A stretch of 64,000 nt of DNA from an uncultured Gammaproteobacteria bacterium (GTDB taxonomy: Bacteria > Pseudomonadota > Gammaproteobacteria > Pseudomonadales > Halieaceae), in contig CAWBXR010000011.1 in assembly GCA_963792815.1 (NCBI GenBank), forward strand, positions 138,036 to 202,035. The letters are read 5' to 3'. Numbering within the stretch: position 1 is the stretch's first letter; each line of letters opens with the position of its first letter. The position numbers and the translations under genes were made by a program. Below, piece by piece: positions 2,867 through 60,903 of the stretch. Under the pieces are notes generated by a model, which saw only the letters and a program-made list of their open reading frames with translations, did not search any database and was not told the origin of the DNA.

Positions 2867-4117
<1,251 letters not shown>

Positions 4118-4118
<1 letters not shown>

Positions 4119-5702: not shown

Positions 5703-5773
5703 TTCGTCTCTACCCTTGCGCCACCCAAGGTAAGTCGCTAGATTTCGAAGGCTGGAACTATACCCATGGAAGA

Positions 5774-10821: not shown

Positions 10822-10921
10822 TGTACCCCAAGCGGCGGCCGTCTGGTCATTTTGGCTGCCTTGCCCCATAATTGCACGCTTTGCGCAAGCCTCCCCACAT
10901 ACTGCCCGTGAGTACCCCCAC

Positions 10922-11863
10922 ATGTTCAAGCTGAGTGACGGAGTCAAGAAGGCGTTAATTTTGATTCCCACCGAGCCCCTGCCGGCCGGAACCCGGGTGT
11001 CCCTGCGACGCAAATATCTTGCCGAGCTGGAGCTGGCCAAGGCACATGCCGCCAGCTTCCTGATTATCGGCCACCCCAAAAGTGGCAATACCTGGCTCAA
11101 GGTGATGATTTCCAGGCTCTACCAGCTGCGCTATAACCTGCCGGAATCAAAGCTTATCAACACCGACGAATTCGCCCGCAAGATCCCTGAGATTCCGCGC
11201 CTGGCAGCCACCAACGGCTACTACAGTTACGAGGGCGAGGTGGGCAAACTGCTGGCGGTGGACGCCCCGGATAACCCCCTGCGGCACAAGCCGGTAATGT
11301 TCCTGGCCCGCAACCCCATAGATATTGCCGTGTCCTGGTATCACCAGTTTACCAAGCGCCAGTCCCGGGCCAAGCAGGAGCTGATCAACCATTTTATCGA
11401 CCACCCCATCGATCGGAACCAGATCGATATGTGGAATTTCGTGCGCCACTCGGATATCGGCCTGCCCTTTCTCATCGAGTACCAGAATACCTGGGCGCGC
11501 AACGTGGAGCAGCTCGAGAAGGGCCTGCTGGTCAAGTACGAGGAGCTGCGCGCTGAGCCCGTGCCTACCCTGCAGAAGATCATCCAGCTGATGGGTGAGA
11601 GTTTCAGCGAGGAGGAGATCCGGGCGGCGGTGGAGTGGGGCTCTTTTGACAACCTGCAGAAACTCGAGACCAGCGGCACCTTCAGCCAGGGCGGCATGAA
11701 ACTGGTCAACGCCGATGACCCCAGCACTTTCAAAGTGCGCCGGGGCAAGGTCGGCGGTTACCGCGAGGACTTTCCGCCCGAGCAGGTAGCCGAGCTGGAA
11801 GCCCTGGTGCGCGCCAATATCCTGCCGCAGCTGGGCTATTGCCAGGATGGCGCGGAGTCCTGA
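10922..11863 (+). CDS. PAPS-dependent sulfotransferase-domain protein, paralog 1 (most divergent)
   Basis: 5'-PSB loop GHPKSGNTWL, 3'-PB motif LARNPIDIAVSWY and C-terminal FKVRRGKVGGYREDF. It overlaps the next gene by 17 nt. Confidence 0.8.
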   Translation: MFKLSDGVKKALILIPTEPLPAGTRVSLRRKYLAELELAKAHAASFLIIGHPKSGNTWLKVMISRLYQLRYNLPESKLINTDEFARKIPEIPRLAATNGYYSYEGEVGKLLAVDAPDNPLRHKPVMFLARNPIDIAVSWYHQFTKRQSRAKQELINHFIDHPIDRNQIDMWNFVRHSDIGLPFLIEYQNTWARNVEQLEKGLLVKYEELRAEPVPTLQKIIQLMGESFSEEEIRAAVEWGSFDNLQKLETSGTFSQGGMKLVNADDPSTFKVRRGKVGGYREDFPPEQVAELEALVRANILPQLGYCQDGAES

Positions 11864-12968
11864 CTTGGCCGCCCCCCGGACCTGGGTCATCCTCAGTGAC
11901 AAGCAGGGCGACAACGGACAGGTAGAAACCATTGTCGACGCCCTGCCCTGGCCGGTGGAGCACAAGTATGTCCACATGTTGCCCCAGTGGGTGCTGGGCA
12001 AGCCGCGCTACCGCCCCTCGCTGGATCACATCGATCCGGAGCAGTCCGACCCCATTGAGGCGCCCTGGCCCGACCTGATTCTCACGGTTGGCCGGCGCCC
12101 GTCAATGGTGGCCCTGTGGATCCGCCAGCAATCCGGCGGCAGGACCAGGATCGTGCTGGTGGGCAAGCCCTCTGGCCATATGCTGGATTTCTCCCTGGTG
12201 GTCGCCAGCGCCGAGAACCAGATGCCGCCGATGGATAACTTCCTGCCCACCACGCTGCCCCTGATGCGGATCAGTGAGGCCGATGTGGCCGCCGAGGCCG
12301 AGGCCTGGCGGGAGCGCTTTGCGCCGCTCGACAAGCCGCTGATTGCCATGCTGATCGGTGGCGAAACCAATCCCTTCATCATGAATCGCAAGGTGGCCCA
12401 GGACCTCGTGGCAACTGCCCACTGGGTGGTGGACGAGCTCGGGGGGACCCCTTACGTTACAACCAGCCGGCGCACCACGCCGGAGGTGGTCGAGGTATTG
12501 CGGCGGGACCTGCCGCCCCAGGCCCAGTTTTTCGAGTGGGCGGCAGGCTCACCGGACAACCCCTACCGCGCCCTGCTGGGCAGCGCCGACGGCTTTATCG
12601 TCACCGGCGACAGCGTGTCGATGATGGTGGAGGTTATTTACCTGCATAAGCCCCTGGCCATATTCCCACTGCCCGGAGGCGCCCTGGGCAGTATCGACCA
12701 GCTGCGCCGCTCCCTGGCCCACTGGCTGTTCAACCCGAAGCTGGAGTCACTCGGCGACCGCCTGCGCCGTCGCCTGGCCCGGGGTGTCTACTACATCGAT
12801 GTGTTCAAGATTCTGTGCGCCACCCGGGACTTCCGGGCCTTTCACCGGATGCTGGTGGCACAGGGGCTGGCGGTCTGGGCGGGACAGCCCTTTCGCCGCA
12901 CGGCCGCCGAACTGCCGGACGATGTCGGCACGGTTGTCAGGCGGATAGAGGCGTTGTTCCCGGGCTGA
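11847..12968 (+). CDS. ELM1-like putative GT-B-fold protein, paralog 2
   Basis: Shares the PWPDLILTVG, QSGGRTR and IVTGDSVSMM blocks with the paralogs at 5774 and 17141. Confidence 0.7.
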   Translation: MARSPDLAAPRTWVILSDKQGDNGQVETIVDALPWPVEHKYVHMLPQWVLGKPRYRPSLDHIDPEQSDPIEAPWPDLILTVGRRPSMVALWIRQQSGGRTRIVLVGKPSGHMLDFSLVVASAENQMPPMDNFLPTTLPLMRISEADVAAEAEAWRERFAPLDKPLIAMLIGGETNPFIMNRKVAQDLVATAHWVVDELGGTPYVTTSRRTTPEVVEVLRRDLPPQAQFFEWAAGSPDNPYRALLGSADGFIVTGDSVSMMVEVIYLHKPLAIFPLPGGALGSIDQLRRSLAHWLFNPKLESLGDRLRRRLARGVYYIDVFKILCATRDFRAFHRMLVAQGLAVWAGQPFRRTAAELPDDVGTVVRRIEALFPG

Positions 12969-13012
12969 TGCCCGCGAGAGTCGGCGTGCGCAAACGCACT
13001 CCGGGGTCGCTG

Positions 13013-13639
13013 TCAGCGCAGCCGCAGAACGTTTTTCATAAAGTGGGTGCCGAAGCGGCTCAGGCGTTGGGCGGCCACCGCCAGCGGGCTCTCGTCCAGG
13101 TAGTTGAGCTGGACCATGCGCCGCTCCCCGACATAGCGGGTGTGGCCGTGCCAGGAGTGGTCGGTGCGGCGAAAAGCCAGCAAGGTGCCCCCCAGCGGCG
13201 GCACCTGGGCGACATAATTCTCTATATCATCCTTTGAGCGCAGCATGCGCAGCTGCCCGTCCTCGTGGTCCCACTGCTCGTTGAAGTACACCAGCACGGT
13301 GATGACCTTGCTTTTGTGGTCGGTGTGAATGTTGCCGTCGGTCCGCTCGCAGAATTTGCGCACGGTGACCGTGGTGGGCAGGGAAGCCAGTTCCATGTCG
13401 AAGCGCTCACCCAGGGCCGTGGCGAAGTCCGGGGCGCGCAGTTCTTCCATCAGGTCTGCAAAGGCCGGGCCGTACTGCAGGTTATCGAGTGCGTGGTTGG
13501 CCGCGGTTTCAATCGCCGGGTAGTCGGCGTTGACGCGGGCCAGTACCTCGGGGCTGAGAAAGCCCGGCACCACCATATAATCGAAGGGGTCGGTGTGCAG
13601 TTCGGCGTTCTGCAGGGCCTGTATGTTGAGCAGTGACAT
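13013..13639 (-). CDS. 2OG-Fe(II) oxygenase-like protein, paralog 1
   Basis: 208 aa. Contains an HxD triad element (NIHTDHK), a distal His (HSWHGH) and a following Arg (ERRMV), consistent with a prolyl-4-hydroxylase-like double-stranded beta-helix fold. Confidence 0.55.
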   Translation of the reverse strand: MSLLNIQALQNAELHTDPFDYMVVPGFLSPEVLARVNADYPAIETAANHALDNLQYGPAFADLMEELRAPDFATALGERFDMELASLPTTVTVRKFCERTDGNIHTDHKSKVITVLVYFNEQWDHEDGQLRMLRSKDDIENYVAQVPPLGGTLLAFRRTDHSWHGHTRYVGERRMVQLNYLDESPLAVAAQRLSRFGTHFMKNVLRLR

Positions 13640-13695
13640 CGGCGCATTCTAGTTGTCGCCCGGGTCGCGGGCAAGGCGGATCGGGGCTTGTATCC

Positions 13696-13729
13696 TGTTA
13701 ATAGTGCCTCTATTGGATGTTAATAGTGC
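13696..13729. promoter_or_regulatory. 12-nt direct repeat TGTTAATAGTGC x2 in a divergent promoter region
   Basis: Exact copies at 13696..13707 and 13718..13729 (22-nt period). They lie in the AT-richer 195-nt gap between the divergent oxygenase-like gene and sulfotransferase 2. Confidence 0.3.
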
Positions 13730-13834
13730 GGTAAATCCCCGATTGCCCCGTGGTGCGGGAGCAGGCGTTTTCCTGTAATATTCGCGGCCTTTGCAGTTTC
13801 CAAATCATGTCATGCCAGCGAGGACCTCCCGCAT

Positions 13835-14746
13835 ATGGCCGATACCGCACGGGCCGTCGTTCGCCACCTCATAATGCTTCTTTGCTTCTGGCTGCCCTCG
13901 TCGCGGCGCAAGAAGATCGAGCGCTGGTTGCGCGGTCGCGAGGAGTTCAAGAAACTCGAACAAAGTGACTGGGTGCTGATGAGCTGGGGCAAGTCCGGTC
14001 GCACCTGGTTGCGGGTGATGCTGTCGCGCGCCTACCAGCTCAAGGGTGGCCTGGACGCCCGCGAGCTGCTCGATTTCGACAATCTCAAAAAGCTCGACCC
14101 GCGGCTGCCCGCGGTGTTCTTCACCCACAACAACTACCTGCGGGACTACACCGGCAACCAGGAGTCCAAGGCTCACTTCCTGGGCAAGCGCATTGTGCTG
14201 CTGGTGCGCGACCCCCGGGACGTTGCTGTGTCCCAGTTTTTCCAGTGGCAGTTCCGCATGCGCCCCAACAAGAAGTTCATCAATGACTATCCCCCCCACG
14301 GCGCCGACATCGGGGTATGGGAGTTCGTGCTGGACGAGGACGCCGGCGTGCCGCGCATCGTCGACTACTTCAACGGCTGGGCCCGCGCGATTCCCCAGTT
14401 GAAGGACGTGCTGATCGTGCGCTACGAGGACATGCGCGCAGACCCCACAGCGGTGCTGGCCAGTATCCTCGAATTTACCGGCACCGAGGTGACCCCTCAG
14501 CAGGTGCAGGAAGCGGTGGATTTCGCGGCCTATGACAACATGAAGAAAATGGAGCAGGAAAAGTTCTTCAAGGGCAGCGGCGCCAGGGTCAAGCCCGGCG
14601 ACAAGGACAACCCCCAGTCCTTCAAGGTGCGCAAGGCCAAGGTTGGCGGCTACCGCGACTATTTCACCGACGAACAGTGTGAGCAGCTCGACCGCATGGT
14701 TGAGCAGCTGGACCCGGTGTTCGGTTACGGGGTTGAACAGGTATGA
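13835..14746 (+). CDS. PAPS-dependent sulfotransferase-domain protein, paralog 2
   Basis: WGKSGRTWL (5'-PSB), LVRDPRDVAVSQF (3'-PB) and FKVRKAKVGGYRDYF. ATGA overlap with the next sulfotransferase. Confidence 0.85.
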   Translation: MADTARAVVRHLIMLLCFWLPSSRRKKIERWLRGREEFKKLEQSDWVLMSWGKSGRTWLRVMLSRAYQLKGGLDARELLDFDNLKKLDPRLPAVFFTHNNYLRDYTGNQESKAHFLGKRIVLLVRDPRDVAVSQFFQWQFRMRPNKKFINDYPPHGADIGVWEFVLDEDAGVPRIVDYFNGWARAIPQLKDVLIVRYEDMRADPTAVLASILEFTGTEVTPQQVQEAVDFAAYDNMKKMEQEKFFKGSGARVKPGDKDNPQSFKVRKAKVGGYRDYFTDEQCEQLDRMVEQLDPVFGYGVEQV

Positions 14747-15681
14747 ATCTCGCTTTCCAGAACCTGCGCCAGGGGCTGCAGACCGCCCGCAAGAAACTCT
14801 CGCGCAAGTGGTTGCACTGGCGCATGCGCGCCCAGCCTGAGGCGGAAATACTCACGGCCGAGCGCAAGCTGCGCGGCGTCGAGCAGTTCGACAAGCTGCA
14901 GAAAGCCGACATCGTGGTGGTATCCTTCGGCAAGAGCGGCCGCACCTGGCTGCGGGTGATGATCTCCCACCTGTTCCGGGTGATGTACAAACTGCCGGAA
15001 AATGCCATCCTGGGCTTCGATAATTTCCACAACCTGAACAAGTCGGTACCGAAGGTATTCTTTACCCACGACAACTACATCAAGGACTTCACCGGCGACT
15101 TCACCAGCAAGCAGCCGTTCTACGGCAAGCGCGTGATACTCCTCGCCCGGGATCCCCGGGATGTGGCGGTGTCCCAGTTTTTCCAGTGGAAATTCCGGAT
15201 CAAGCCCTCCAAGGTCACCATCAATAACTACCCGCCCCAGGGCAGCGATATCAGCCTCTTCGATTTCGTTATGGGTGATAACGGCGGCGGTATGCGAGCG
15301 GTCACCGATTACCTGAACCTGTGGGCGGCCGAGGCCGACAAGGTCACCGCCTTCCACCTGCTGCGCTACGAGGACCTGCGCAGCGATACCGCGGTTGAGT
15401 TGCGCAAACTTCTGAACTTCATGCAGGTCGATGCCACCAACGCCGAGGTTGATGCGGCGGTGGAATACTCTTCCTACGAGAACATGAAGAAGATGGAAAG
15501 CAAGGAGCAGTTCCGCTTCGCCGGTGGCCGCATGATGCCCCGGGACAAGGACAATCCCGACAGCTACAAGGTGCGCCGCGCCAAGGTCGGCGGTTACCGC
15601 GATTACTTCACCGACGAGGAAGTCGCGGCCATCGATGCCCGTTTGGCTGTCGAGCTGGATCCGCTGTTTCGTTATAGCTGA
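14743..15681 (+). CDS. PAPS-dependent sulfotransferase-domain protein, paralog 3
   Basis: FGKSGRTWL, LARDPRDVAVSQF and YKVRRAKVGGYRDYF. Start overlaps the upstream stop (ATGA at 14743..14746). Confidence 0.85.
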   Translation: MNLAFQNLRQGLQTARKKLSRKWLHWRMRAQPEAEILTAERKLRGVEQFDKLQKADIVVVSFGKSGRTWLRVMISHLFRVMYKLPENAILGFDNFHNLNKSVPKVFFTHDNYIKDFTGDFTSKQPFYGKRVILLARDPRDVAVSQFFQWKFRIKPSKVTINNYPPQGSDISLFDFVMGDNGGGMRAVTDYLNLWAAEADKVTAFHLLRYEDLRSDTAVELRKLLNFMQVDATNAEVDAAVEYSSYENMKKMESKEQFRFAGGRMMPRDKDNPDSYKVRRAKVGGYRDYFTDEEVAAIDARLAVELDPLFRYS

Positions 15682-15728
15682 TTGCGGAGTTCCCTGGTTG
15701 TGGCTCGGCTGAATTTCCCTGCCTAACG

Positions 15729-16165
15729 TTTAGTTCTGGTCTGGCAAGCCGGGCGCGACCGGGGAGAGCCCCCTCGAAAAGGCCGCAGCTCCGCAAACAA
15801 AAGGAAATTGGGGACAGACCACCATTAATTATTCGTTACAGAACGCATCGGGCTAGCGCAGGGTTGGATCTTTTTAGATCCGCGCACCACTTGATGTCAC
15901 CAAACTGTGGTCCGTCCCCCATTCTCGCCCAGTTCTGCAGAACGCTCGATTGAGGGCGCAATCGGGGAGCAGCCCCTCGAAAAAGTCAGGTCGCGTTTAG
16001 CGTAGTCAACAAACTCGGGGCTTTCTGCGAGCACTGTTCGAGTCCCAATTTTTTGCGTAGCAAAAAATGGTCGAGTTGCGCAGCAGCCGAGTTTGTTGAC
16101 GAGCTGCGGCCTTTTCGAGGGGCTGCTCCCCGGTTGTGCCCGTCTTGACACGCCTGAACCAGAAA
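15729..16165. repeat. nested inverted-repeat (REP/BIME- or MITE-like) element filling a convergent intergenic gap
   Basis: A 31-nt unit GGGGAG(A/C)(G/A)(C/G)CCCCTCGAAAAGGCCGCAGCTC occurs at 15761..15791 (+), a diverged copy at 15964..15994 (+), and an inverted copy at 16101..16131. Flanking similarity extends the outer inverted pair to about 50 nt (15740..15791 vs 16101..16153). Inner inverted pairs are GGGGACAGACCAC 15810..15822 / GTGGTCCGTCCCC 15908..15920 and GTCAACAAACTCGG 16005..16018 / CCGAGTTTGTTGAC 16087..16100. Hairpins are GGATCTTTTTAGATCC at 15866..15881 and CCAATTTTTTGC-GTA-GCAAAAAATGG at about 16045..16070. Confidence 0.7.
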
Positions 16166-16169
16166 CATA

Positions 16170-17060
16170 TCAAGCGGCCCGAACCAACTCCAGCGCGTCA
16201 GCCCGCAAATGCCCCTGCTCCATTTCTTCTTGCAGCTGGGCTTCAGTGATCACGCCGTCGTCCAGGCAGCCCTTTACCAGGCCGAAGAAGAACTTTTCCT
16301 GGTTGGGGTCCGGGTGGGCGTCGTAGGTGCCGGCGAACTTGTACTCGCCGAACAGGGCGCGACGCGCGCGGCGCAGCCAGTGACGGGGTGGGAACAGCTG
16401 GAAGGTGTCGGCGGGGCGGTAGTCCACCTTGAGGCCGGTCTTCCAGGGTTGGGTCTTGCGCTTGGTGTTGTGCAGCAGCTTGGTCTGCTCGGTGAGATTG
16501 TCGAAGTCGTTCCACTGGCTCTCCAGCCGGCCGATAGTGGCAGGGTCTTCCAGCTTTAGGGAGACCCAGTCCATGTAGTCCCGCTTCGAGGGCTTGAACA
16601 TCTCGGCGAAATTCTCCTCGAAGCGCCAGTGGCGGAGCTTCGCGCAATCCAGCAGCATCACGCTGCTGGCGAAAGCGCCCTTGCGGCCTTTGCGGCCCGA
16701 TTTGGGGCGACACATGATGGCCTTGCCTTCCATGTCCCTGTTGAGCAGTTCCCAGACATCGCCCAGGGCAAACACGTCCGGGTCGATAATCACCGCGCGG
16801 CCCTCGTAGTTCATCAGTTGCGGCGGCGCGAAGCGCAGGGGAGTGAAGGACTGCAGGTCGTTGTTGAGCCATGGGCGCATTTCGCCGTCGCGCAGGTACT
16901 GTTGTCCCTCCCGCTCGGCCATGCAGGGGAAGTCCTTCACCTCGATGAATTTGACATCGAACTGCTCGGCATGGGCAGAATTTTTCTGCAGGGAGTAGCG
17001 ACTGACCACCGCACCCAGCTTCTGCTTGTGGTTGGTGTGAATGAAAACAGTAGGTTTCAA
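16170..17060 (-). CDS. GT8-like (GT-A fold, DxD) glycosyltransferase, paralog 1
   Basis: TTG start at 17060 ((M)KPTVFIHTNHKQ). Contains DLQSFTPLRF, GRAVIIDPDVF (DxD), SSVMLLDCAKLRHW and LHNTKRKTQPWKTGL (GT8-type H..(K/Q)PW motif). Two clear paralogs lie at 18219 and 25197. Confidence 0.65.
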   Translation of the reverse strand: MKPTVFIHTNHKQKLGAVVSRYSLQKNSAHAEQFDVKFIEVKDFPCMAEREGQQYLRDGEMRPWLNNDLQSFTPLRFAPPQLMNYEGRAVIIDPDVFALGDVWELLNRDMEGKAIMCRPKSGRKGRKGAFASSVMLLDCAKLRHWRFEENFAEMFKPSKRDYMDWVSLKLEDPATIGRLESQWNDFDNLTEQTKLLHNTKRKTQPWKTGLKVDYRPADTFQLFPPRHWLRRARRALFGEYKFAGTYDAHPDPNQEKFFFGLVKGCLDDGVITEAQLQEEMEQGHLRADALELVRAA

Positions 17061-17140
17061 ACTCTGGCTTCCCTTGGCGGATTAGTGTGGTAGTTTACCG
17101 CTGGCGCAGTACCAGATAAACGGCAGGGTTTGGCAATATT

Positions 17141-18244
17141 TTGGAGAGAAATCAAGAGGTCGCAGTCTGGTGCCTGCTGGGCGCGAAGGCCGGGGATAAT
17201 ACCCAGGTGCTCGCCCTGGCGGAGGAGCTGGGCTGCGGCTACGAGGAAAAACATATACGGGCCCGCCCCTGGGAGTTACTCGTTCACCTGGGGGTCGGCC
17301 CGACCCTGGCGGGTATCGACAGGGACGCGTCCAGTGAGCTGCTGCCACCCTGGCCCGACCTGGTCATCAGTGCCGGTCGACGCAACGAGGCAGTGGCCCT
17401 CTGGATAAAGCAACAATCCGGGGGCAGGACCGCACTCGTCCACATGGGACGCCCCTGGGCCGGCCTCGACAAGTGGGACCTGCTGGTAACTACCCCTCAG
17501 TATTTCCTGCCCCGACAGGACAATATCCTGCACAACAGCCTGCCCCTGCACCGGCTTTCCCGGGCAGAACTGCAGGCCGATGGTGAGCGCTTGCGACCGC
17601 GGCTGGAAGGGCTGCCACGGCCCTGGATAGCGTTGCTGGTGGGGGGTGACAGTGGGCGTTTTGTGCTTACCCCCGCCAAGGGTGAGCGCCTGGGAAGCCT
17701 GGCGAACCAGCTGGCCGCGGCCAGTGGCGGCTCTCTGCTGGTGACGGATAGCGCGCGGACGCCGGTGGCGGCGGCAGATGCCCTGCAGGCCCAACTCACC
17801 GCGCCCAACTTCTGCTATCGCTGGGGCGGTGGCGGCGACAACCCCTATCGCAGCCTGCTGGCCCTTGCCGATGCCTTCGTGGTTACCGGCGAATCCATGT
17901 CCATGCTGGGGGAGGCGGTGGCCATGGGGCGTCCGCTGTATATCTTTGATGTCGGTGACGGCTCACTGCCCTGGTGGCGGCTGGCCCACAGTTATCGTTA
18001 CAAGCCTCTGAGCCACCGCCTGGCGATGCGCCTGGGCCCGCTGCGGATGCGGCGGGAAATCGGCAACATCCAGTCCGCGCTGGTCGACAGCGGCCGGGCC
18101 AGTTGGCTGGAGCAGGGGACTATAGCGACAGCTGCCGCGGAACTGGGCGAAACGGCAGCCGGCAGCAGTGCCGTCGGGTCCCTGGCAGCGCAGGAGCTGG
18201 AGCGGACTGCGGCCGCCGTCAGGCGGCTTTTGACAGCGCGCTGA
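17141..18244 (+). CDS. ELM1-like putative GT-B-fold protein, paralog 3
   Basis: TTG start as given by the ORF track; no in-frame ATG lies near the N-terminus. Contains PWPDLVISAG, QSGGRTA and VVTGESMSML blocks. Its 3' end overlaps the convergent GT8-like gene by 26 nt. Confidence 0.65.
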   Translation: MERNQEVAVWCLLGAKAGDNTQVLALAEELGCGYEEKHIRARPWELLVHLGVGPTLAGIDRDASSELLPPWPDLVISAGRRNEAVALWIKQQSGGRTALVHMGRPWAGLDKWDLLVTTPQYFLPRQDNILHNSLPLHRLSRAELQADGERLRPRLEGLPRPWIALLVGGDSGRFVLTPAKGERLGSLANQLAAASGGSLLVTDSARTPVAAADALQAQLTAPNFCYRWGGGGDNPYRSLLALADAFVVTGESMSMLGEAVAMGRPLYIFDVGDGSLPWWRLAHSYRYKPLSHRLAMRLGPLRMRREIGNIQSALVDSGRASWLEQGTIATAAAELGETAAGSSAVGSLAAQELERTAAAVRRLLTAR

Positions 18245-19163
18245 GCGGGTGTGCGGGGGCCGGCGGCAGGTCCGGGGTCCTTGCCAGCACTTCCAGGGCG
18301 TCGTGGCGCACGTGGTTCAGCGCCATCTCGTTGCGCAGGAACTCCTCGGTGATCTTGCCGCTGGCGAGGCACTCCTTGAGCAGGCCGAAAAAGAAGTCTT
18401 CCTGGTTCTGGTCGGGGTGCTGCTTGTAGTTGCCCAGGAAGGCGTACTCGCCGAACAGTTTGCGGCGCGCGCGCATCACCCAGGCCACCGGTGGGAACAG
18501 GCGGAAACGCTCCGCGGGGCGCCAGTCGGTGGGCAGGCCGGTCTTCCAGGGCTGGGTCTTGCGCCGGGTGGTGTGCAGCATTTTGGTGGCAGGGGTGAAT
18601 TTGTCGAAGTCGTTCCACTCGGATTCGAAGAAGTCGATGGTGCTGCGGTCTTCCTCGCGCAGGCAGATCCAGGGCTGGTAGTCCTGGGTGAAATCAAACA
18701 TCGCCTCGAAGCTGCGCTCGGCGTCCCAGTGTTGCAGCCTGGCGCAGTCCAGCAACATCACGCTGCTGGCCATGCAGCGGTCCACCAGGCCCTTGGGGCC
18801 GGAGCGCATGCGACACATGATGGCCTTGCCGTGCATATCGCGGCTGAGCAGTTCCCAGATGTCGGCGGCGGCGAAAATATCAGGGTCGATGACCACGGCC
18901 CGGCCCTCGTAGCCCATCAGTTTGGGGGGCATGAAGCGGGTGGGGGTGAAGGATTGCAGGTCGTCGTTCAGCCAGGTGCGCTTGACGCCGTCGCGCAGGT
19001 ATTCCTGCCCCTCGTGGGCGGCGAACATCGGGTAATCCCGGCTGTCCATGATCTGCACGTCGAACTTGTCGTTGTTGGCGGAATAGCGGCGCAGGGCGTG
19101 CTCGGCCACGATGGCGCCGGTGATCTGCTTCTGGTTGGTCTGGATAAATACGCAGGCTTTCAT
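18219..19163 (-). CDS. GT8-like glycosyltransferase, paralog 2
   Basis: MKACVFIQTNQKQ..., DLQSFTPTRF, GRAVVIDPDIF, SSVMLLDCARLQHW and LHTTRRKTQPWKTGL. Last gene of a six-gene minus-strand operon. Confidence 0.65.
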   Translation of the reverse strand: MKACVFIQTNQKQITGAIVAEHALRRYSANNDKFDVQIMDSRDYPMFAAHEGQEYLRDGVKRTWLNDDLQSFTPTRFMPPKLMGYEGRAVVIDPDIFAAADIWELLSRDMHGKAIMCRMRSGPKGLVDRCMASSVMLLDCARLQHWDAERSFEAMFDFTQDYQPWICLREEDRSTIDFFESEWNDFDKFTPATKMLHTTRRKTQPWKTGLPTDWRPAERFRLFPPVAWVMRARRKLFGEYAFLGNYKQHPDQNQEDFFFGLLKECLASGKITEEFLRNEMALNHVRHDALEVLARTPDLPPAPAHPLSALSKAA

Positions 19164-19239
19164 AATGTTGCGGGGTCCGTTTTACACCGGGCAACTATAA
19201 TGGAACGGGCCCTTTTTTGCCATTTTGAGGGGGGTACTT

Positions 19240-20202
19240 TCAGCGTGAATAGTACTTGATACTGCGCCCGGTCAAGGTGGTGTAGAGCACGCCGCCAGCC
19301 TTCGCCATACGGTACAGGCTGTGCATGAAAGTGCTTTTCGAGAAGATAGAAAAAGGCAATATAATCAAAGAGATAAGCATTTTTGCCAGGGCGGTGGAAA
19401 GCAGTTTCAACATGCGGTTTCCGTCGCCGTGGTAGCGCGCCATATTGACCTGGGAGCAGCCGTTCTTGAAGCCGCGCCTGATCAGCCCGCGGGCGGTGTA
19501 GCGCTCGGGCCCGTGAACCCGGTGGATGATGGATTTTTCCGCCGACGCCAGGCGCGCGCCCATGTGGTGGGCGCGGATGAAGAAGTCCTTGTCCTCGCCG
19601 CCGCTGTTGCAGAAGGCGTGGGAGAAAACCGGCTCCACGTCGCCGACGCGCACCAGGATATTCTTGCTGACCAGCAGGTTGCAGGTAGAGGCGCAGTCGG
19701 GCAGGCCGTAGCGGCCGCCCTTTTTGTCCTGCTTGGTCTTGGTAGGGGAGCGGAATATACCCGACTCCCGGGCCCAGTCAGGCATCTGTTCGTCCAGCAC
19801 CCAGCTGCCGAAAACCAGGTCGGCCCCGGTCTCCTGCTGGCGCTCGAGCAACTGTAGCAACCAGTCCGGCTGGGGTACGTCGTCATCGTCGATAAACGCC
19901 AGGAACCCGGCCCCCCGCTCCAGCGCTACTTTCACGGCGCGATTGCGGGCGTGGGTTATGCCCGGCTCCGGTTCGGTGGTGTAGTGAACATTGATAGGCA
20001 GGCTTGAACCCGTCTGCTCGCAGATGTCGCGGGTGGCGGAATTGGGGTTGTTGTCGATAACGATAAGTTCGACGCCAGCCGGATCGTAGCTGCCCAGCTC
20101 GATATCCATCAGCGTAAGCAGCAGCCGCTTGAGAACTTCCGCGCGGTTATGCGTGCATATGCAAATGGCTACCCGTTGCTCGGGGATGGGGTTTGTGGTC
20201 AT
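19240..20202 (-). CDS. family 2 glycosyltransferase
   Basis: VAICICTHNRAEVLKRLL, VIDNNPNS and LAFIDDDDVP (DxD) are typical of the GT2 N-terminal domain. Hydrophobic C-terminal tail. Confidence 0.8.
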   Translation of the reverse strand: MTTNPIPEQRVAICICTHNRAEVLKRLLLTLMDIELGSYDPAGVELIVIDNNPNSATRDICEQTGSSLPINVHYTTEPEPGITHARNRAVKVALERGAGFLAFIDDDDVPQPDWLLQLLERQQETGADLVFGSWVLDEQMPDWARESGIFRSPTKTKQDKKGGRYGLPDCASTCNLLVSKNILVRVGDVEPVFSHAFCNSGGEDKDFFIRAHHMGARLASAEKSIIHRVHGPERYTARGLIRRGFKNGCSQVNMARYHGDGNRMLKLLSTALAKMLISLIILPFSIFSKSTFMHSLYRMAKAGGVLYTTLTGRSIKYYSR

Positions 20203-20205
20203 GCG

Positions 20206-21144
20206 TTACTTGAATATACCGCGGCGGTAGAGGCCCCAGAAGAATCCCCACAGGTAGATGAGCGGGGCTCGCCTGACCTTGTCGGGAATGACGATGTTCT
20301 CCCCGGAATGCCGTTCCAGTTTCCACGCGATATAATCCAGTCCCCCCTCGAACGTAAACAACGCTTTTACCAATCTCATTATTGAGAGCAGTTTCCCCTG
20401 GCCCCGGCGCAGCGTCCACGCAATCCGCGTAAACAACTGGCTGCTCCGAGCAGTTGCACTGCGGTAGCTCATTTGGCCGCCGACATCATACACCGTAAAG
20501 CCAAAGCCAAGCGAGGGGGACAATTGCCGGGTAACTTCGGCATAGAAGTCGGCGGCGGCCAGGGCCAGTTCGGTAGCCCTGCCCGGGCGCTCGGTGCGCA
20601 GCTCGGTCGAGTAGCTAAGGGCCAGGGCCTGCTCCCACAGGCTGGTCACGGTGCCCTGGGGCGGCAGCACCGGCAGGGTGTTGTGCAACAGCGTCCGGGA
20701 GGCCTGCAGCAGGCAGTGTTCCAGTCCCTGCCGGGTCTGCGCGTCGCGGCTGTAGACGATTCTGGTGGGCTGGGCGAAACGGCCCCAGATATAGGACTCA
20801 AACCAGGCCCGGGAGCAGCCGCGCCGGAAATCCCGCAGGGAAATAACCGTCACCTTGCTGCGCAGGGTCTTGTTCGCCAGCTTGTGCTCCGCGTAGAACA
20901 CGTTCGGTGGCAGCAGCCAGTTGGCCCCCGCCAGCAGCGGCTTGCGGTAGGCTGCGCGGTAGCCGTCGCAGATCAGGTAGAGATCCAGCAGGCCGTCGTA
21001 GATATCGCCGCTGCGCAGGCAGGAGCCGTAGAGCAGGATGCCGCAGATAGCGTCGTGGTGGCGCGCCCGTAATTGCCCCAGCAGCGCCGCCAGGGCGGGG
21101 TCGCTGGCGGCGTCGGGGCCGGCTACATGCGGGTAATCGCTCAC
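20206..21144 (-). CDS. Tam41/Mmp37-like putative lipid-phosphate nucleotidyltransferase (weak assignment)
   Basis: ORF 20206..21348 trimmed to the in-frame GTG at 21144, which overlaps the upstream kinase stop as GTGA. ILLYGSCLRSGD...GLLDLYLIC and VFYAEH...KVTVISLRDF...YIWGRFAQPTRIV recall the Tam41 (PF09139) pattern. This is recognition from memory only. Confidence 0.4.
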   Translation of the reverse strand: MSDYPHVAGPDAASDPALAALLGQLRARHHDAICGILLYGSCLRSGDIYDGLLDLYLICDGYRAAYRKPLLAGANWLLPPNVFYAEHKLANKTLRSKVTVISLRDFRRGCSRAWFESYIWGRFAQPTRIVYSRDAQTRQGLEHCLLQASRTLLHNTLPVLPPQGTVTSLWEQALALSYSTELRTERPGRATELALAAADFYAEVTRQLSPSLGFGFTVYDVGGQMSYRSATARSSQLFTRIAWTLRRGQGKLLSIMRLVKALFTFEGGLDYIAWKLERHSGENIVIPDKVRRAPLIYLWGFFWGLYRRGIFK

Positions 21145-22106
21145 AGGGTGAGAAAGTCCAGGGGCTCGCTGGCGCAGATATCGACCGGCCCGTTTGCCAC
21201 CAGTATTTCCCCGTCGAGGTTCAGTTTGCCATCGAGTTGCAGGCGTATCCGCTGGGCATTGTGGCTGAGATAGCCCGATCCGGATACAGCGTTGCGGTTC
21301 GGCCTGCCCCTGACAATCGACAGGAAAGTGCGGGCGAAGCGGCTGCAACCCTGCTGGAACAGCGTGAGGCGGATCGCGCCGGGGCCGGAACCCCAGAACG
21401 GGCGCATGCCGAAAGCCAGGCGCTGCAGGGTGCTGATCGCCAGGATCAGGGTGTCGTAGCTGGCAGCCCCGCCGTCATCGAGTGTCAGTTCAATACTGAC
21501 ATGGCGGTTGAAGGCCGGGTCGTTGCGGAGCAAACCCCATACAGTGCGCAGGGTTGTCAGGGCCAGGCTGAAATCGTCCCGCAGGCCGCGGGCGTGCACC
21601 TCCTTGTGGGCGTATTCGGTACCCTGGATGATCGCCCCGCCGCCGAGGAACATCCCGTAGCGGGCGGGCTGGTCAGCGCCGAGCTCCACCCGCATAAGCG
21701 CTCGCTGGGCGAGCATGCCCGCGGTTGCGCGCTCGCCCTCGCACCAGTGGCAGAAGCGTTCGGTGGCTTTCCACAGGGAGCCGCTGACACCGATATCGCC
21801 GGCGTTCATGTTGGCGGTGCCGCCCGGCAGGAGCACGATGATGGGCGGGGTTTCGAACAGGCCGCTTTCCAGCAGCTCGCCCAGTATGTTCGAGGCTGTG
21901 CCGTCTCCCCCGTTGATCGCCAGCACTCCCACCCGGGTCTGGGCCAGCTCCGCCAGGGCCGGCCCGACGTCGTCCAGGCTGTGGGTAACTATGTGGTGGA
22001 TCGAGGGACAGCGGGCGATGCGGTTGCGGATGCGTTCGAACTGGTCGCGGTTATGGCCGCTGCCAGGGTTGCTGATCAGCCCCACCGGGCCGGCGGCCCT
22101 GCTCAC
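21141..22106 (-). CDS. DAG-kinase-catalytic-domain lipid kinase (YegS/BmrU-like)
   Basis: GLISNPGSGHN, LAINGGDGT and LLPGGTANM motifs. The GTG start overlaps the upstream stop (GTGA at 22103..22106). Confidence 0.8.
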   Translation of the reverse strand: MSRAAGPVGLISNPGSGHNRDQFERIRNRIARCPSIHHIVTHSLDDVGPALAELAQTRVGVLAINGGDGTASNILGELLESGLFETPPIIVLLPGGTANMNAGDIGVSGSLWKATERFCHWCEGERATAGMLAQRALMRVELGADQPARYGMFLGGGAIIQGTEYAHKEVHARGLRDDFSLALTTLRTVWGLLRNDPAFNRHVSIELTLDDGGAASYDTLILAISTLQRLAFGMRPFWGSGPGAIRLTLFQQGCSRFARTFLSIVRGRPNRNAVSGSGYLSHNAQRIRLQLDGKLNLDGEILVANGPVDICASEPLDFLTL

Positions 22107-22969
22107 TCAGCGGCTTCCCGCAGGGTCGCCGACTTGAGGTTGATTTCGGCATTGCCGATCCGCGGCGCGGTGCCGCGCAATTGCACCGGCAGGCTGTTGG
22201 TCACGTCAAACAGCACGGTGATGTCACCGGCGCCGTCCAGGCCCAGCAGGCTGAAGTCGGGCTTTTCCGCCAGTTCACCCAGGGGGCTGACTTGCAGCGT
22301 CACGCCTCGGGTCTCGCGCTTGCCCGTTACCGCCGCGGCGCCCTGCAGCTGGTAGTTCATCTCGATGGTGGGCCCTTCGCCACGGCTCATTTGCACCCGG
22401 TAAAAATTGAATTCAGTGTTCACCACCGCCTCGGTCGAGGTCTGGTCCGAGTCCAGGAAGCGACCCGCGAGATCGAGCAGGGCGTAGGCGTCGGTCACCA
22501 CCATGCCCGAGGCGGCTGGGGGGTAGGGTATCTTGTGGCGACTGCTAACCGGCCACTCGGCCGGTGGCAGATCCGTTTTGGCTGGTGGGTCATGGCGCAC
22601 CCGCAAAATGTCCTTGGGTCGGAACGCATAGGTCTTGTAGCGCTGCTGCTTGCCCTTGCTGAAGCGCGACCGGTACAGTGCGCGGCCGTCAGCCGGCGCC
22701 AGGTCCAGCACCACCACCTCGACGTTGCTGGCTACCGAGCTGTCAGCCTTGAGCTGCCAGCGCCCGGCGTCCTCGCTGTGTTCGCCAATCTCCACCCGCG
22801 ACCTGGCGGTGACAAAGTACGCCTGCTGTTCGTATTCCAGTACCTGCCAGGCCGGCAGTGGCGGCAGCGCCTCCTTTGAGTTGCCGGCGGCTGCGGCAGG
22901 CAGGCTCGCGAGGGCGGCCGCCGACAGCAGGCAGCAGTGGATAAGCGGGTTACGGGTTATTCTTGTCAT
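22103..22969 (-). CDS. exported hypothetical protein
   Basis: 288 aa with an N-terminal signal peptide (LIHCCLLSAAALASLPAAAAG). ATGA overlap with the upstream ligase-like gene. No family confidently recognised. Confidence 0.6.
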   Translation of the reverse strand: MTRITRNPLIHCCLLSAAALASLPAAAAGNSKEALPPLPAWQVLEYEQQAYFVTARSRVEIGEHSEDAGRWQLKADSSVASNVEVVVLDLAPADGRALYRSRFSKGKQQRYKTYAFRPKDILRVRHDPPAKTDLPPAEWPVSSRHKIPYPPAASGMVVTDAYALLDLAGRFLDSDQTSTEAVVNTEFNFYRVQMSRGEGPTIEMNYQLQGAAAVTGKRETRGVTLQVSPLGELAEKPDFSLLGLDGAGDITVLFDVTNSLPVQLRGTAPRIGNAEINLKSATLREAAE

Positions 22970-24141
22970 TGGTCATGTCCAGGGTAGCGAGCCTTTGCCG
23001 GCAGGTGGCTGGCCGGGTAGGTGGCCATGATAAGCGCCACGGGCAGCCAGAAAAACAGCCACAGTTCCTTGGGCTGAACGAACAGCCGGTCGTAGTCCAT
23101 GGCGACAGATGTCGTACCGTATAGGAGTAGCGCCAGGTAGATTCGTTCCCCGCGCTGGCGATACATCTGCCAGGCCTGGTAGGCGGCTACCGCGAGCAGG
23201 GCCAGCAACAGCGCCAGTCCCACCAGGCCGCCGTCGCGCAGTGTGGCCAGATAACTGTTGTGGGCATGGTCGAACAGCTTGCCGTAGGCCGGAACCCTGG
23301 GGTCGATCAGGTAGCCGTGACCAAACCACCAGTAGCCCTGCATGTCTGTCAGCACCTGCTGCCAGATGCCGGGACGAAAGGAGAAATCGCCGACCCGGTG
23401 CAGCCAGAGGCTGGAGTTGGTGGCCATCACCGCCCACATCGTGGCGACACCGGCCGCAGCCACTCCCAGCGCCCGGTAACCGAGCAGCACCAGCAGGCCG
23501 ACACAGACCCCGGCCATGGCCGTGCGCGACTGGGTGAACACAATCAGGCACAGGATTGCCAGGGACAGCGAAGCGTATACCCACCTGTTTTCCCGTCCTC
23601 GCTGCGTGAATACGTAGTGCATGCACAACACCAGGAAAATGCCGTAGGCGGAGGCCGCCTTGTTCTGGTGGTGCATTACGCCCAGGGGTTCCAGTCGGGA
23701 TTCGGGAAAGGGATTCTGCAGGTACCAGGCCGCGATCGACACCACGGCGGCGGCGGCCGCCAGCCAGGTGGCGCGATGGGCCAGCAGGTCCATCAGGCTG
23801 GCCTGGCGCACCCACAGGTAACCGCTGATAAAGCAGAAGCTCAGGACGCACAGGGCATAGCCCGCCGCCTGCAGTGCCGGCAGCAGTTCAAAGTCCGCCG
23901 TCCACAGCAGGCTGCTCATCATGTAGCAGCAGTAGAGCAGAAGCAGCAGCGCGAGTGTGTTGGCGCGGTAGAACTGTGCCAGTTCGCGCCACAGCACCAG
24001 GACGGCGGGCAGCACCAGGACGTAGTAGACCTTGCGGTGGCCCGAGGCCATGGGCAGCAGGAAGTAACCGGCGATGAATACGGCGTAAAAGTACACCATT
24101 CCCCGGTCCAACAGGAATCGCTGAAATGCCTTGAAATCCAT
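22966..24141 (-). CDS. O-antigen ligase (Wzy_C) family membrane protein
   Basis: 391 aa and polytopic. Contains FTQSRTAMAGVCVGLLVLLGY and HAHNSYLATLRDGGLVGL, characteristic of WaaL/Wzy_C proteins. First gene of the six-gene minus-strand operon. Confidence 0.75.
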   Translation of the reverse strand: MDFKAFQRFLLDRGMVYFYAVFIAGYFLLPMASGHRKVYYVLVLPAVLVLWRELAQFYRANTLALLLLLYCCYMMSSLLWTADFELLPALQAAGYALCVLSFCFISGYLWVRQASLMDLLAHRATWLAAAAAVVSIAAWYLQNPFPESRLEPLGVMHHQNKAASAYGIFLVLCMHYVFTQRGRENRWVYASLSLAILCLIVFTQSRTAMAGVCVGLLVLLGYRALGVAAAGVATMWAVMATNSSLWLHRVGDFSFRPGIWQQVLTDMQGYWWFGHGYLIDPRVPAYGKLFDHAHNSYLATLRDGGLVGLALLLALLAVAAYQAWQMYRQRGERIYLALLLYGTTSVAMDYDRLFVQPKELWLFFWLPVALIMATYPASHLPAKARYPGHDQ

Positions 24142-24203
24142 AAATTTCAGATACTTGCGAGGGCTGATCGAAAGCCGTTAAAAATACCACCTAATCTTGA
24201 GAA

Positions 24204-24249
24204 TGCCCCGATCATCCTATAACCTTCGCCACTTCGTCTGCCCCGATCA
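24204..24249. promoter_or_regulatory. 11-nt direct repeat TGCCCCGATCA x2 upstream of sulfotransferase 4
   Basis: Exact copies at 24204..24214 and 24239..24249 (35-nt period). They lie in the AT-richer divergent gap 24142..24269; the second copy ends 20 nt before ATG 24270. Confidence 0.3.
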
Positions 24250-24269
24250 GGGGAATAGGTATTCTTATC

Positions 24270-25193
24270 ATGCACATGATTATCAAGCGACTGACCAAGT
24301 GGCTGGTTCGCGCGATTTCCATATTCCTGCCCGAAGCGAAGGCGCACGAACTCGAGCGCTGGCGCCGCGGGCGCGAGGAGTTCTGGAAGTATAACCGCTG
24401 CCAATACATCTTTGCATCCTATGGCAAGAGCGGGCGTACCTGGGTGCGGGTGATGATCTCCCGCTACTACCAGCTGGTGTACAAGCTGCCCGACAATATC
24501 CTGATGGGTTTCGACAATTACACCCGTCTCAACAAGGACATCCCGAAAATCTTCTTTACCCACGACAATTACCTGCGCGGCTTCACCGGCAATGTCGATT
24601 CGAAGAAGGATTTCTACGACAAGAAAACCGTGCTGCTGGTGCGCAATCCCATCGACGTCGCCGTGTCGCAGTTCTTCCAGTGGAAGTACCGTATGCGCCC
24701 GGAAAAAAAGGCGATGAACAAGTATCCGGAGCACGAGGCCGATATCTCGGTATATGACTTCGTCAAGGACGAGAACCAGGGCCTGTCCCACATCATCGAG
24801 TTCATGAACAACTGGGCGCGTGAGTTGCCGAAGATCAAGAGCTTGCTGGTGGTTCGCTACGAGGACCTGCGCAGCAGTCCGGAGCGGGAGATGGGGCGCA
24901 TCGTCGAATTCCTGGGTATGGAAGCCAATGAGGAATACCTGCGCGATACCGCGGAGTTTGCCTCGGTGGAAAACCTGCGCAAGAAAGAACAGGAGAACTA
25001 TTTCTGGCGCAGCGGCAGCCGGGTGCAAGCCAAGGACGTCAACGATCCCAATACCTTCAAGGTGCGCAAGGCCAAGGTGGGCGGCTACCGCGATTACTTT
25101 GACGACGATCAAGTGGCAGAGCTCGACGCGATGGTAGATTCGCGCCTGTTACCGGTATTCGGGTATACCGCCGCCGAGAGCACGGGGGGCTGA
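24270..25193 (+). CDS. PAPS-dependent sulfotransferase-domain protein, paralog 4
   Basis: YGKSGRTWV, LVRNPIDVAVSQF and FKVRKAKVGGYRDYF. First gene of a plus-strand operon. Confidence 0.85.
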   Translation: MHMIIKRLTKWLVRAISIFLPEAKAHELERWRRGREEFWKYNRCQYIFASYGKSGRTWVRVMISRYYQLVYKLPDNILMGFDNYTRLNKDIPKIFFTHDNYLRGFTGNVDSKKDFYDKKTVLLVRNPIDVAVSQFFQWKYRMRPEKKAMNKYPEHEADISVYDFVKDENQGLSHIIEFMNNWARELPKIKSLLVVRYEDLRSSPEREMGRIVEFLGMEANEEYLRDTAEFASVENLRKKEQENYFWRSGSRVQAKDVNDPNTFKVRKAKVGGYRDYFDDDQVAELDAMVDSRLLPVFGYTAAESTGG

Positions 25194-31344: not shown

Positions 31345-31362
31345 GGGCTCAACCCGACCGGC

Positions 31363-33243: not shown

Positions 33244-33269
33244 GTAGCTGTCCTCCGGGCCGCAGCTGA

Positions 33270-60890: not shown

Positions 60891-60903
60891 GAGGTTACTT
60901 TTA

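Follow-up and report, generated by a model that had tools for sequence, protein, structure and literature searches.

Which molecule is sulfated by four sulfotransferases whose genes lie in one locus of an uncultured gammaproteobacterium of the family Halieaceae? To answer this, we analyzed a 64,000-nucleotide stretch of its genome (GenBank assembly GCA_963792815.1, contig CAWBXR010000011.1, positions 138,036 to 202,035 of the forward strand), which is referred to below as the window. An initial annotation had reported in it four paralogs of the type that uses 3'-phosphoadenosine 5'-phosphosulfate (PAPS), here designated ST1-ST4, and had pointed to acceptors of the lipopolysaccharide (LPS), K-antigen or Nod-factor type. 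We found that the ST genes sit in a sphingolipid island and not in a classical LPS-core locus. It is probable, in our judgment, that the four proteins are cytoplasmic PAPS-type sulfotransferases of a Halieaceae island for sphingolipid synthesis, decoration and export, acting by the pathway proposed below. The most likely product, as predicted from the gene content, is a polysulfated glycosphingolipid resembling lipooligosaccharide (LOS), which would be sulfated in the cytoplasm and then exported.

The sulfotransferase paralogs

The four genes are as follows.

10922-11863, + strand: ST1, Sulfotransfer_1 paralog of 313 amino acids; PAPS-binding motifs intact, Asn in place of the catalytic His
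13835-14746, + strand: ST2, Sulfotransfer_1 paralog of 303 amino acids; full Lys/His/Arg/Ser set, short hydrophobic/amphipathic N-terminus
14743-15681, + strand: ST3, Sulfotransfer_1 paralog of 312 amino acids; translationally coupled to ST2
24270-25193, + strand: ST4, Sulfotransfer_1 paralog of 307 amino acids; opens the block ST4, GT8-like c, 2-oxoglutarate (2OG) oxygenase-like b and 4'-phosphopantetheinyl transferase (PPTase)

All four proteins matched the Pfam family PF00685 (Sulfotransfer_1), with E-values of 2.4e-23 (ST1), 1.3e-25 (ST2), 7.3e-24 (ST3) and 5.4e-23 (ST4). The assignment is beyond chance, because the gathering score of 22 was far exceeded (82-91 bits). Every motif quoted in the initial annotation was present as written, including the 5'-phosphosulfate-binding loop (PKSGNTW in ST1 and GKSGRTW in ST2-4 by alignment), the 3'-phosphate motif (RNPIDIAVS in ST1, RDPRDVAVS in both ST2 and ST3, RNPIDVAVS in ST4) and the C-terminal block F/YKVR(K/R)(A/G)KVGGYR(D/E)(D/Y)F, which is common to all four. 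The reported closer kinship of paralogs 2-4 was also borne out: ST2-4 were 45-50% identical among themselves and each was 29-37% identical to ST1. ST2 and ST3 form a tandem in which the stop of the former and the start of the latter share ATGA, as can be seen in the sequence ...GTATGAAT....

A profile built from the four proteins retrieved from the PDB the plant SOT 1q44, SULT1A1, SULT1E1 and SULT2A1 at E-values of 1e-17 to 1e-11 (best 3.5e-17), and the glycopeptide sulfotransferases Teg12, Teg14 and StaL at 1e-11 to 1e-8; retinol dehydratase was also among the solved relatives. With SULT1A1, SULT1E1, SULT2A1, the plant SOTs and Teg12/Teg14/StaL, the window proteins share PF00685, the Lys of the phosphosulfate-binding loop, the His (in ST2-4), the Arg/Ser pair and a C-terminal GxxGxx. 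They differ in that sequence similarity is low, that the solved enzymes act on small molecules or glycopeptides and that ST1 has Asn for His. An NCBIfam scan of ST1 and ST2 matched no curated model. Signal peptides were absent from ST1-ST4, and the N-termini of ST2 and ST4 are short and, by hydrophobic moment, hydrophobic/amphipathic, which suggests compatibility with peripheral membrane binding. Judged by sequence, ST1-ST4 add new members to an established enzyme family, that of the cytoplasmic PAPS-type (SULT-fold) sulfotransferases, and PAPS-dependent activity is predicted for ST2-4.

This family is large, with 1050 members at E<=1e-30 and 4284 at E<=1e-10, counted as representatives of 50%-identity clusters. 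A search with ST2 gave 5607 homologs, and the top 120 (83-94% identity) were labelled Halioglobus or Haliea. PKSGNTW was found in 80/80 ST1 orthologs and GKSGRTW in all ST2-4 orthologs. The Arg and Ser columns of the 3'-phosphate motif were invariant in the printed alignment rows of 110 full-length cluster representatives.

Comparison with the solved enzymes at the catalytic position, which corresponds to His108 of SULT1E1/1A1 and follows a conserved Thr, divided the paralogs. This position reads Thr-His in ST2-4 and Thr-Asn in ST1. A motif census of ST2-4 and their orthologs showed that GKSGRTW (with the Lys), FFTH[ND]NY (with the Thr-His base), the Arg/Ser motif and KVR[KR]AKVGGYRDYF were all retained. 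Thus, the catalytic Lys, the catalytic His and the PAPS contacts were confirmed for three of the proteins, and the expected base is missing from ST1. Its Asn, within an AATN motif, was present in 80/80 Halieaceae ST1 orthologs. An ST1 ortholog from another lineage, the metagenome-assembled genome (MAG) SG8_31 (67% identity), has Ser-Asn (ASN) at this site, and the ST1-like cluster representatives P0258 and P0269 (49-55% identity) have Thr-Asn; in the wider family, His was found in 87/110 full-length representatives. To judge from these sequences, Asn at the catalytic position is a trait of the ST1 clade.

ST1 is functional, as it is conserved as strongly as any gene of the locus (median identity 85%). 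It may either transfer sulfate by means of another base, for which the conserved YSYExE segment that follows the Asn may be the source, or act as a non-catalytic partner of ELM1b, a predicted glycosyltransferase whose start overlaps the 3' end of ST1 by 17 nt. The initial annotation had also read four enzymes as several distinct sulfation positions. The conservation of the ST genes together in relatives is in line with several positions; since ST1 lacks the His, one position per enzyme is safe for three at most.

Sphingolipid genes around the sulfotransferases

Genes assigned to ceramide formation, head-group initiation and transport are listed below; the locus tags are those of the proposed Caulobacter counterparts.

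79-1008, + strand: GNAT acyltransferase resembling bacterial ceramide synthase (bCerS-like); weak Pfam GNAT match (E 1.6e-4), assigned by synteny
899-1837, + strand: MobA-like nucleotidyltransferase (NTP_transf_3) by Pfam, counterpart of CC_1153; true start probably near 1019
1917-2846, - strand: calcineurin-type metallophosphoesterase by Pfam, counterpart of CC_1158
4118-5320, - strand: serine palmitoyltransferase (Spt), which catalyzes the committed step toward sphingolipids; NCBIfam equivalog NF047599, 591.8 bits against a cut-off of 500
5460-5702, - strand: dedicated acyl carrier protein (ACP), AcpR-like, by NCBIfam ACP models; adjoins Spt
6837-8582, - strand: ATP-binding cassette (ABC) exporter by Pfam, with fused transmembrane and nucleotide-binding domains; MsbA-like but not MsbA
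8654-9985, - strand: LptG-type permease by Pfam; TIGR04408, 268 bits against a cut-off of 240
9721-11100, - strand: LptF-type permease by Pfam, divergent from ST1; TIGR04407, 265 bits against a cut-off of 230; true start probably near 10785
20206-21348, - strand: Tam41/Mmp37-like protein, counterpart of CpgC (CC_1161); weak Pfam match (E 7e-4), true start probably near 21150
21141-22106, - strand: DAGK_cat lipid kinase, counterpart of the ceramide kinase CpgB (CC_1160); Pfam E 3e-12, NCBIfam lipid-kinase models
26784-27518, + strand: PPTase (Pfam ACPS), presumably serving the dedicated ACP; right end of the conserved locus

These genes are interleaved with the ST genes. Those for Spt, ACP and the bCerS-like protein lie 5' of ST1, those for the CpgB-like and CpgC-like proteins lie between ST3 and ST4, and the PPTase gene closes the ST4 block. 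The acceptor types named in the initial annotation are therefore less well supported than a sphingolipid head group, which is predicted to be the more likely acceptor: the ST genes are bracketed by Spt/ACP/bCerS-like genes on one side and by ceramide-kinase-like/CpgC-like genes on the other. In two of the compared loci (L001 and L164; L numbers denote such loci), a PP-binding gene was found at the same position as the window ACP.

In Caulobacter crescentus, the cluster for sphingolipids and ceramide diphosphoglycerate (CPG2), CC_1152-CC_1168 (CCNA_01210-01226), is described as containing Spt, AcpR, the bCerS GNAT protein, CpgB, CpgC, a MobA-like protein, a calcineurin-type phosphoesterase and LptF2/LptG2 (PMC11324152 S1 Text, PMC9393093). 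The GNAT, NTP_transf_3, metallophosphoesterase, DAGK_cat, Tam41-like and LptF/LptG genes of the window match these gene types one for one, and Spt and a dedicated ACP are shared as well. The kinase and Tam41-like genes stand side by side with the same domain descriptions as CC_1160/CC_1161, and they are likened by description and by the weak Tam41 match. PDB searches with the nucleotidyltransferase and the lipid kinase gave nothing informative. Through relatives of the window, the correspondence extends to AasR-like and CerR-like genes. In L158, an 82% relative, an AMP-binding (AasR-like) and an NAD-epimerase (CerR-like) gene lie upstream of the bCerS-like gene and complete the ceramide set; both types are also found beside the locus in L164.

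Positions 1-9600 of L158 additionally hold an LpxL-like acyltransferase, a fatty-acid hydroxylase, AsnB, a GT4 glycosyltransferase and a second Wzy_C gene. In both L098 (6897-9545) and L158, LpxL-type acyltransferases and fatty-acid hydroxylase occur within sphingolipid loci beside AasR-like/CerR-like genes, which hints at extra O-acylation or hydroxylation of ceramide.

The two clusters part ways at the head group. A motif of the CDP-alcohol phosphatidyltransferase CpgA (DGxxAR...G...D...D) was detected in 9 distant sphingolipid loci; it was not found in the window, in any Halieaceae-type locus or in any ST-bearing locus. Beyond the CpgB/CpgC steps, the head group thus appears to differ from that of CPG2, and the product is not expected to be CPG2. 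The Halieaceae locus is also without LptC2, and its flippase candidate is an ABC exporter, whereas that of Caulobacter is a Wzx-like protein. Four ST, three ELM1-type, three GT8-fold and two 2OG-oxygenase-like genes are additions undescribed for Caulobacter, and this glycosylation/sulfation module stands where Caulobacter has a CpgA-dependent second phosphoglycerate. By its sequence, the locus appears to be a new form of the known sphingolipid locus of bacteria, distinguished by this added module. As a separate observation, a CpgA-type motif was seen within or directly beside the DAGK-type kinase open reading frame (ORF) in L132 (10878-12560) and L143 (near 18759), suggesting CpgA-CpgB fusions.

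With regard to transport, LptF2/LptG2 are reported in a 2026 preprint to be present in many alpha- and gammaproteobacterial sphingolipid loci and to be required for sphingolipid transport (bioRxiv 10.64898/2026.04.12.717747). The window LptF had a modest match to the solved P. aeruginosa LptF (131 bits). As a control, we scored LptF/G of other sphingolipid loci with the NCBIfam LPS models and obtained the same or higher scores than those of the window pair; therefore, these models cannot separate housekeeping from dedicated LptF/G. The ABC exporter scored 242 bits against a cut-off of 602 for MsbA, and its best NCBIfam model was the HepA family (290/725).

Glycosylation genes, conservation and linkage

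The remaining genes of the island include several predicted glycosyltransferases.

5618-6844, + strand: ELM1a, predicted GT-B glycosyltransferase; Pfam Mito_fiss_Elm1, E 6e-60
11847-12968, + strand: ELM1b, predicted GT-B glycosyltransferase; always follows ST1, SG8_31 and the Halioglobus japonicus group included
13013-13639, - strand: 2OG-Fe(II) oxygenase a, P4H-like; PF13640, E 8e-9; divergent from ST2-ST3, conserved
16170-17060, - strand: GT8-fold glycosyltransferase paralog a; no Pfam match, fold of paralog b
17141-18244, + strand: ELM1c, predicted GT-B glycosyltransferase; Pfam E 1.9e-56
18219-19163, - strand: GT8-fold glycosyltransferase paralog b; conserved DPD motif, AlphaFold2 model and Foldseek
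19240-20202, - strand: GT2 glycosyltransferase by Pfam; accessory
22103-22969, - strand: exported all-beta protein; no Pfam match, AlphaFold2 mean local confidence (pLDDT) 90.7
22966-24141, - strand: Wzy_C, O-antigen-ligase-like membrane protein; Pfam 38.7 bits against a cut-off of 31.7; accessory
25197-26108, + strand: GT8-fold glycosyltransferase paralog c, by paralogy to b
26105-26821, + strand: 2OG-oxygenase-like b; weak PF13640 match (E 0.01), HxD...H pattern, 22-27% identity to 2OG oxygenase a

GT8-fold paralogs a, b and c share 56-59% mutual identity. For the AlphaFold2 model of paralog b (pLDDT 81, pTM 0.82), the Foldseek matches listed were LgtC, glycogenin, LARGE1, GlyE, WbbM, XXYLT1 and the UGGT catalytic domain, with E-values of 6e-9 to 5e-6; on this model, it is a predicted retaining GT-A glycosyltransferase of GT8 or GT8-like fold. 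The Mito_fiss_Elm1 family (clan CL0113, GT-B) is handled as a glycosyltransferase family in Acinetobacter LOS outer-core loci. PDB sequence searches with the GT8-like profile and with ELM1b returned chance-level matches only. Looking up the exact sequences of ST2 and of GT8-like paralog a (through P0122) yielded no record.

It is possible that the glycosyltransferases and STs build and sulfate an LPS/LOS core on lipid A, and that the sphingolipid genes are mere neighbors in an outer-membrane glycolipid island. LptF and LptG are above the LPS equivalog cut-offs, the locus has an O-antigen-ligase-like Wzy_C gene and three paralogs with an LgtC-like GT8 fold, ELM1-type transferases are known from the Acinetobacter loci mentioned above, and LpxL-like acyltransferases lie upstream in relatives. 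However, no WaaA, GT9 heptosyltransferase, Kdo or Lpx genes were detected among the window ORFs scanned against Pfam, the exporter differs from MsbA, Wzy_C and GT2 belong to the accessory genes, and the LPS models give equally high scores to LptF/G from other sphingolipid loci. Moreover, the STs are bracketed by Spt/ACP and CpgB/CpgC-like genes, and this linkage survives reshuffling of gene order in other lineages. We therefore consider sulfation of an LPS/LOS core unlikely and favor the sphingolipid head group as the acceptor.

The 80 best ST1 relatives belonged to Halioglobus, Haliea, Mangrovimicrobium, Chromatocurvus and other Halieaceae (OM60/NOR5). In approximately 40 of the 48 loci with full flanks, the order Spt-ACP-ELM1a-ABC-LptG-LptF-ST1-ELM1b-2OG-ST2-ST3-GT8a-ELM1c-GT8b-(GT2)-CpgC-like-CpgB-like was conserved, and the block ST4-GT8c-2OGb-PPTase was kept in L001, L166, L167 and L168. 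Past the PPTase gene, gene content varies from genome to genome, and the locus was therefore taken to end with PPTase. Median identities in the Halieaceae loci were 85% for ST1, 83% for ST2, 81% for ST3, 84% for Spt and 88% for GT8 paralog b, which is the most conserved protein of the locus, and 74% for the ABC exporter, 68% for LptF and 59% for LptG. The STs are thus as conserved as Spt and are fixed components of the Halieaceae island, and the joint conservation of all four fits several sulfation steps in one pathway. GT2 and Wzy_C were both present in the window and L168 and both absent in L001 and L166; they may be an accessory pair that adds a periplasmic extension to the lipid.

ST genes are also tightly coupled to their neighbors. 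In addition to the ST1/ELM1b overlap, ST4 ends 3 nt before GT8-like c, which in turn overlaps 2OG b. These arrangements suggest step-wise modules formed by ST1-ELM1b, by ST2-ST3 with the divergent 2OG gene, and by ST4-GT8c-2OGb. The presence of two 2OG-oxygenase-like genes paired with ST genes, as possible installers of hydroxyls, and of retinol dehydratase among the solved relatives raises the question of whether sulfate is transient here. Some SULT-fold proteins make a hydroxyl a leaving group, and in the CurM/olefin-synthase sulfotransferase domains sulfation drives elimination; if some of the STs served a dehydration or elimination of this kind, be it on the sphingoid or the acyl chain, little or no sulfate would be left on the mature lipid. 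We regard this as very unlikely: the ST sequences bear no dehydratase mark, and a decorated glycan accounts better for four paralogs conserved like Spt and for the six or seven glycosyltransferases that accompany them.

Outside the Halieaceae, a metagenome scan with the GNAT protein detected homologs down to 47% identity (47-66%). In more than 20 unrelated contigs, these homologs adjoin Spt/ACP genes, with LptF/G, the CpgB-like kinase and Tam41-like genes also among the neighbors, and these neighborhoods support the bCerS assignment. The adjacency of CpgC-like and kinase genes likewise occurs in unrelated sphingolipid loci. In three loci with a different gene order (L097, L098 and L119; GNAT identity 55-62%), an ST2-like gene (47-58% identity, His retained) lies beside bCerS-like, NTP3 or CpgC-like genes. 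In MAG SG8_31 and a related contig, one locus has an ST1-like gene followed by ELM1, and it also holds 2OG oxygenase, ST2-like, Spt, ACP, ABC exporter, GT8-like, AasR-like and CerR-like genes. The linkage of STs with sphingolipid genes thus recurs in at least 3 gene orders and lineages. One further locus (L143) has GT8-like and ELM1 genes and no ST. Most sphingolipid loci with a bCerS-like gene at ~50% identity have no ST, and most of them also lack GT8-like and ELM1 genes.

These ST-free loci, and the size and diversity of an ST family most of whose members surely act on other substrates, would be expected if the STs served an unrelated product (capsule, exopolysaccharide or a small molecule) and had come to lie in the island by historical accident. 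The recurrence in several gene orders and lineages, the tight coupling to glycosyltransferase genes and a conservation equal to that of Spt all argue against this, and no Wza/Wzc/Wzx export genes were found among the ORFs scanned. An unrelated product is accordingly a highly improbable explanation.

Other features of the window were noted in passing. The conserved exported protein (22103-22969) always adjoins the lipid kinase and may be a periplasmic handling factor; its best Foldseek match was the Brucella DUF1849 beta-barrel-like structure 6ntr (TM 0.5-0.6), and resemblance to lipid binders of the LolA/RseB type is faint. Beside Spt, a gene for a MurA-type enolpyruvyl transferase (2867-4118, - strand) is split into two frames by a frameshift near 3765-3775. 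One extra G in the catalytic-loop codons (window CCCGGCGGGCTGTGC) contrasts with an in-frame PGGCAIG in 67 related loci; the gene is either a recent pseudogene or was misread during sequencing of a G run. A carbamoyltransferase (NodU/CmcH-type), a DUF3604 protein and a WS/DGAT protein (29614-34937) were weighed as possible members of the locus but excluded, as they are not conserved with it elsewhere. Within 10.5-27.6 kb, promoter-like sites (8, against 4.0 +/- 2.4 in shuffles) and terminator-like sites (15, against 13.6 +/- 4.0) were not clearly above expectation. The Rfam scan detected tRNA-Arg alone, and the tandem repeat scan nothing relevant. In the 36-64 kb part of the window, no PAPS, cysteine or sphingolipid genes were found. 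This part includes a group at 57623-61608 (+ strand) of a DUF3080 gene, a LolA-like gene, two MacB/FtsX-type permeases and an ABC ATPase, which resembles a separate envelope lipid/lipoprotein transport cluster. It also includes a segment (46001-48000) of 72.7% GC, against ~62% elsewhere, in which a TamB-like gene (47133-49388) begins; TamA (49378-51279) comes next.

A proposed pathway and its relation to known systems

From the protein family, motifs, gene content, conservation and linkage described above, we infer what the acceptor is, how the steps are ordered, their topology and how many sulfates are added. In the proposed pathway, Spt, the dedicated ACP, PPTase and the bCerS-like GNAT protein would make ceramide together with AasR and CerR, and the CpgB-like kinase and CpgC-like protein would initiate an anionic head group. 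At the cytoplasmic face of the inner membrane, this head group would be extended to an oligosaccharide by three ELM1-type (GT-B) and three GT8-fold (GT-A) enzymes, with GT2 in some genomes. ST2, ST3 and ST4 would then place sulfate esters from cytoplasmic PAPS on distinct head-group hydroxyls, some of which may be created by the two 2OG-oxygenase-like proteins, and ST1 would either sulfate with a different catalytic base or serve as the non-catalytic partner of ELM1b. The finished lipid would be flipped by the non-MsbA ABC exporter and extracted toward the outer membrane by the LptF/LptG-type pair, and GT2 and Wzy_C, where present, may add a further extension in the periplasm. Sulfation in the cytoplasm fits the absence of signal peptides from the STs and the hydrophobic/amphipathic N-termini of ST2 and ST4.

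It should be noted that several points weigh against this pathway. The bCerS and CpgC assignments consist of weak Pfam matches and synteny, the AasR-like and CerR-like genes were seen in relatives only, outside the window, and PAPS-synthesis genes were not found in the 64-kb window. ST1 is without the catalytic His in all of its Halieaceae orthologs. GT8, ELM1-type, Wzy_C and the LpxL-like genes upstream in relatives are all typical of LPS/LOS assembly, and the LptF/LptG pair, which passes the NCBIfam LPS equivalog cut-offs, may be the sole copy in the cell. In the Halioglobus japonicus group (L017, L022 and L024), the genes from Spt through ST1-ELM1b are kept and unrelated genes follow after position ~12040: sulfatase, DUF3604, SDR, TonB-dependent receptor and LysR regulator genes replace the part that begins with 2OG-ST2-ST3-GT8. 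Therefore, the gene set is not universal. Finally, in the literature searched, which was not exhaustive, neither sphingolipids nor sulfated lipids were reported for Halieaceae, and no paper connected sulfotransferases with bacterial sphingolipid clusters.

The predicted lipid can be compared with several known systems. The sphingomonad glycosphingolipids GSL-1 to GSL-4, which replace LPS, have a ceramide anchor with an anionic oligosaccharide in the outer leaflet, like the product proposed here; their genes are scattered, whereas those of Halieaceae form an island. The negative charge of the sphingomonad lipids is due to uronic acids, and we know of no sulfate on them. Assembly of the LPS/LOS outer core (LgtC/WaaI/WaaJ of GT8, Acinetobacter GtrOC of ELM1 type, MsbA, WaaL and LptB2FG) shares step-wise cytoplasmic glycosylation, ABC flipping, an optional Wzy_C protein and LptFG, but the Halieaceae locus has ceramide anchor genes and a non-MsbA exporter, and Kdo/heptose transferases were not found among the ORFs scanned. 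By function (PAPS as donor, a glycolipid head group as acceptor), the STs may be likened to rhizobial NodH and LpsS, mycobacterial Stf0/Stf3 and mammalian cerebroside sulfotransferase. The last of these resides in the Golgi and belongs to another Pfam family; it takes part in the synthesis of sulfatide, a sulfated glycosphingolipid. Sulfonolipids of Bacteroidetes (capnine, sulfobacins) are also sulfur-bearing, sphingolipid-like and made with an Spt homolog; their C-S sulfonate comes from cysteate, and a PAPS sulfotransferase is not needed. In contrast, the window Spt falls within the serine palmitoyltransferase equivalog, and sulfur would be carried as an O-sulfate ester.

A more far-reaching picture can be drawn, although we hold it doubtful as a whole. 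Halieaceae and some sediment gammaproteobacteria may build a ceramide-anchored, LOS-like 'sulfatide-LOS' of the outer leaflet, whose charge would come largely from up to four sulfate esters instead of phosphates. Exported by a dedicated ABC flippase and LptFG-type pair, this lipid would stand beside LPS or even take its place and would spare phosphorus in sulfate-rich, phosphate-poor seawater. The ST1 clade would be either a His-less sulfotransferase that uses another catalytic base or a PAPS-binding pseudoenzyme partner of a glycosyltransferase.

Only recently have bacterial sphingolipid loci been worked out, with phosphoglycerate or simple sugars as the head groups known so far. A strongly conserved, family-wide set of STs and glycosyltransferases in a sphingolipid locus predicts a new class of envelope lipid, and its OM60/NOR5 carriers are among the most abundant clades of coastal bacterioplankton. 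Some carriers are in culture (Chromatocurvus halotolerans, Mangrovimicrobium sediminis, Haliea and Halioglobus strains), and the prediction is therefore open to lipidomics. If true, this would be, to our awareness, the first PAPS-dependent sulfated bacterial sphingolipid, a candidate phosphorus-sparing anionic surface lipid, and a natural test case for the proposed LptF2G2 route of sphingolipid export.

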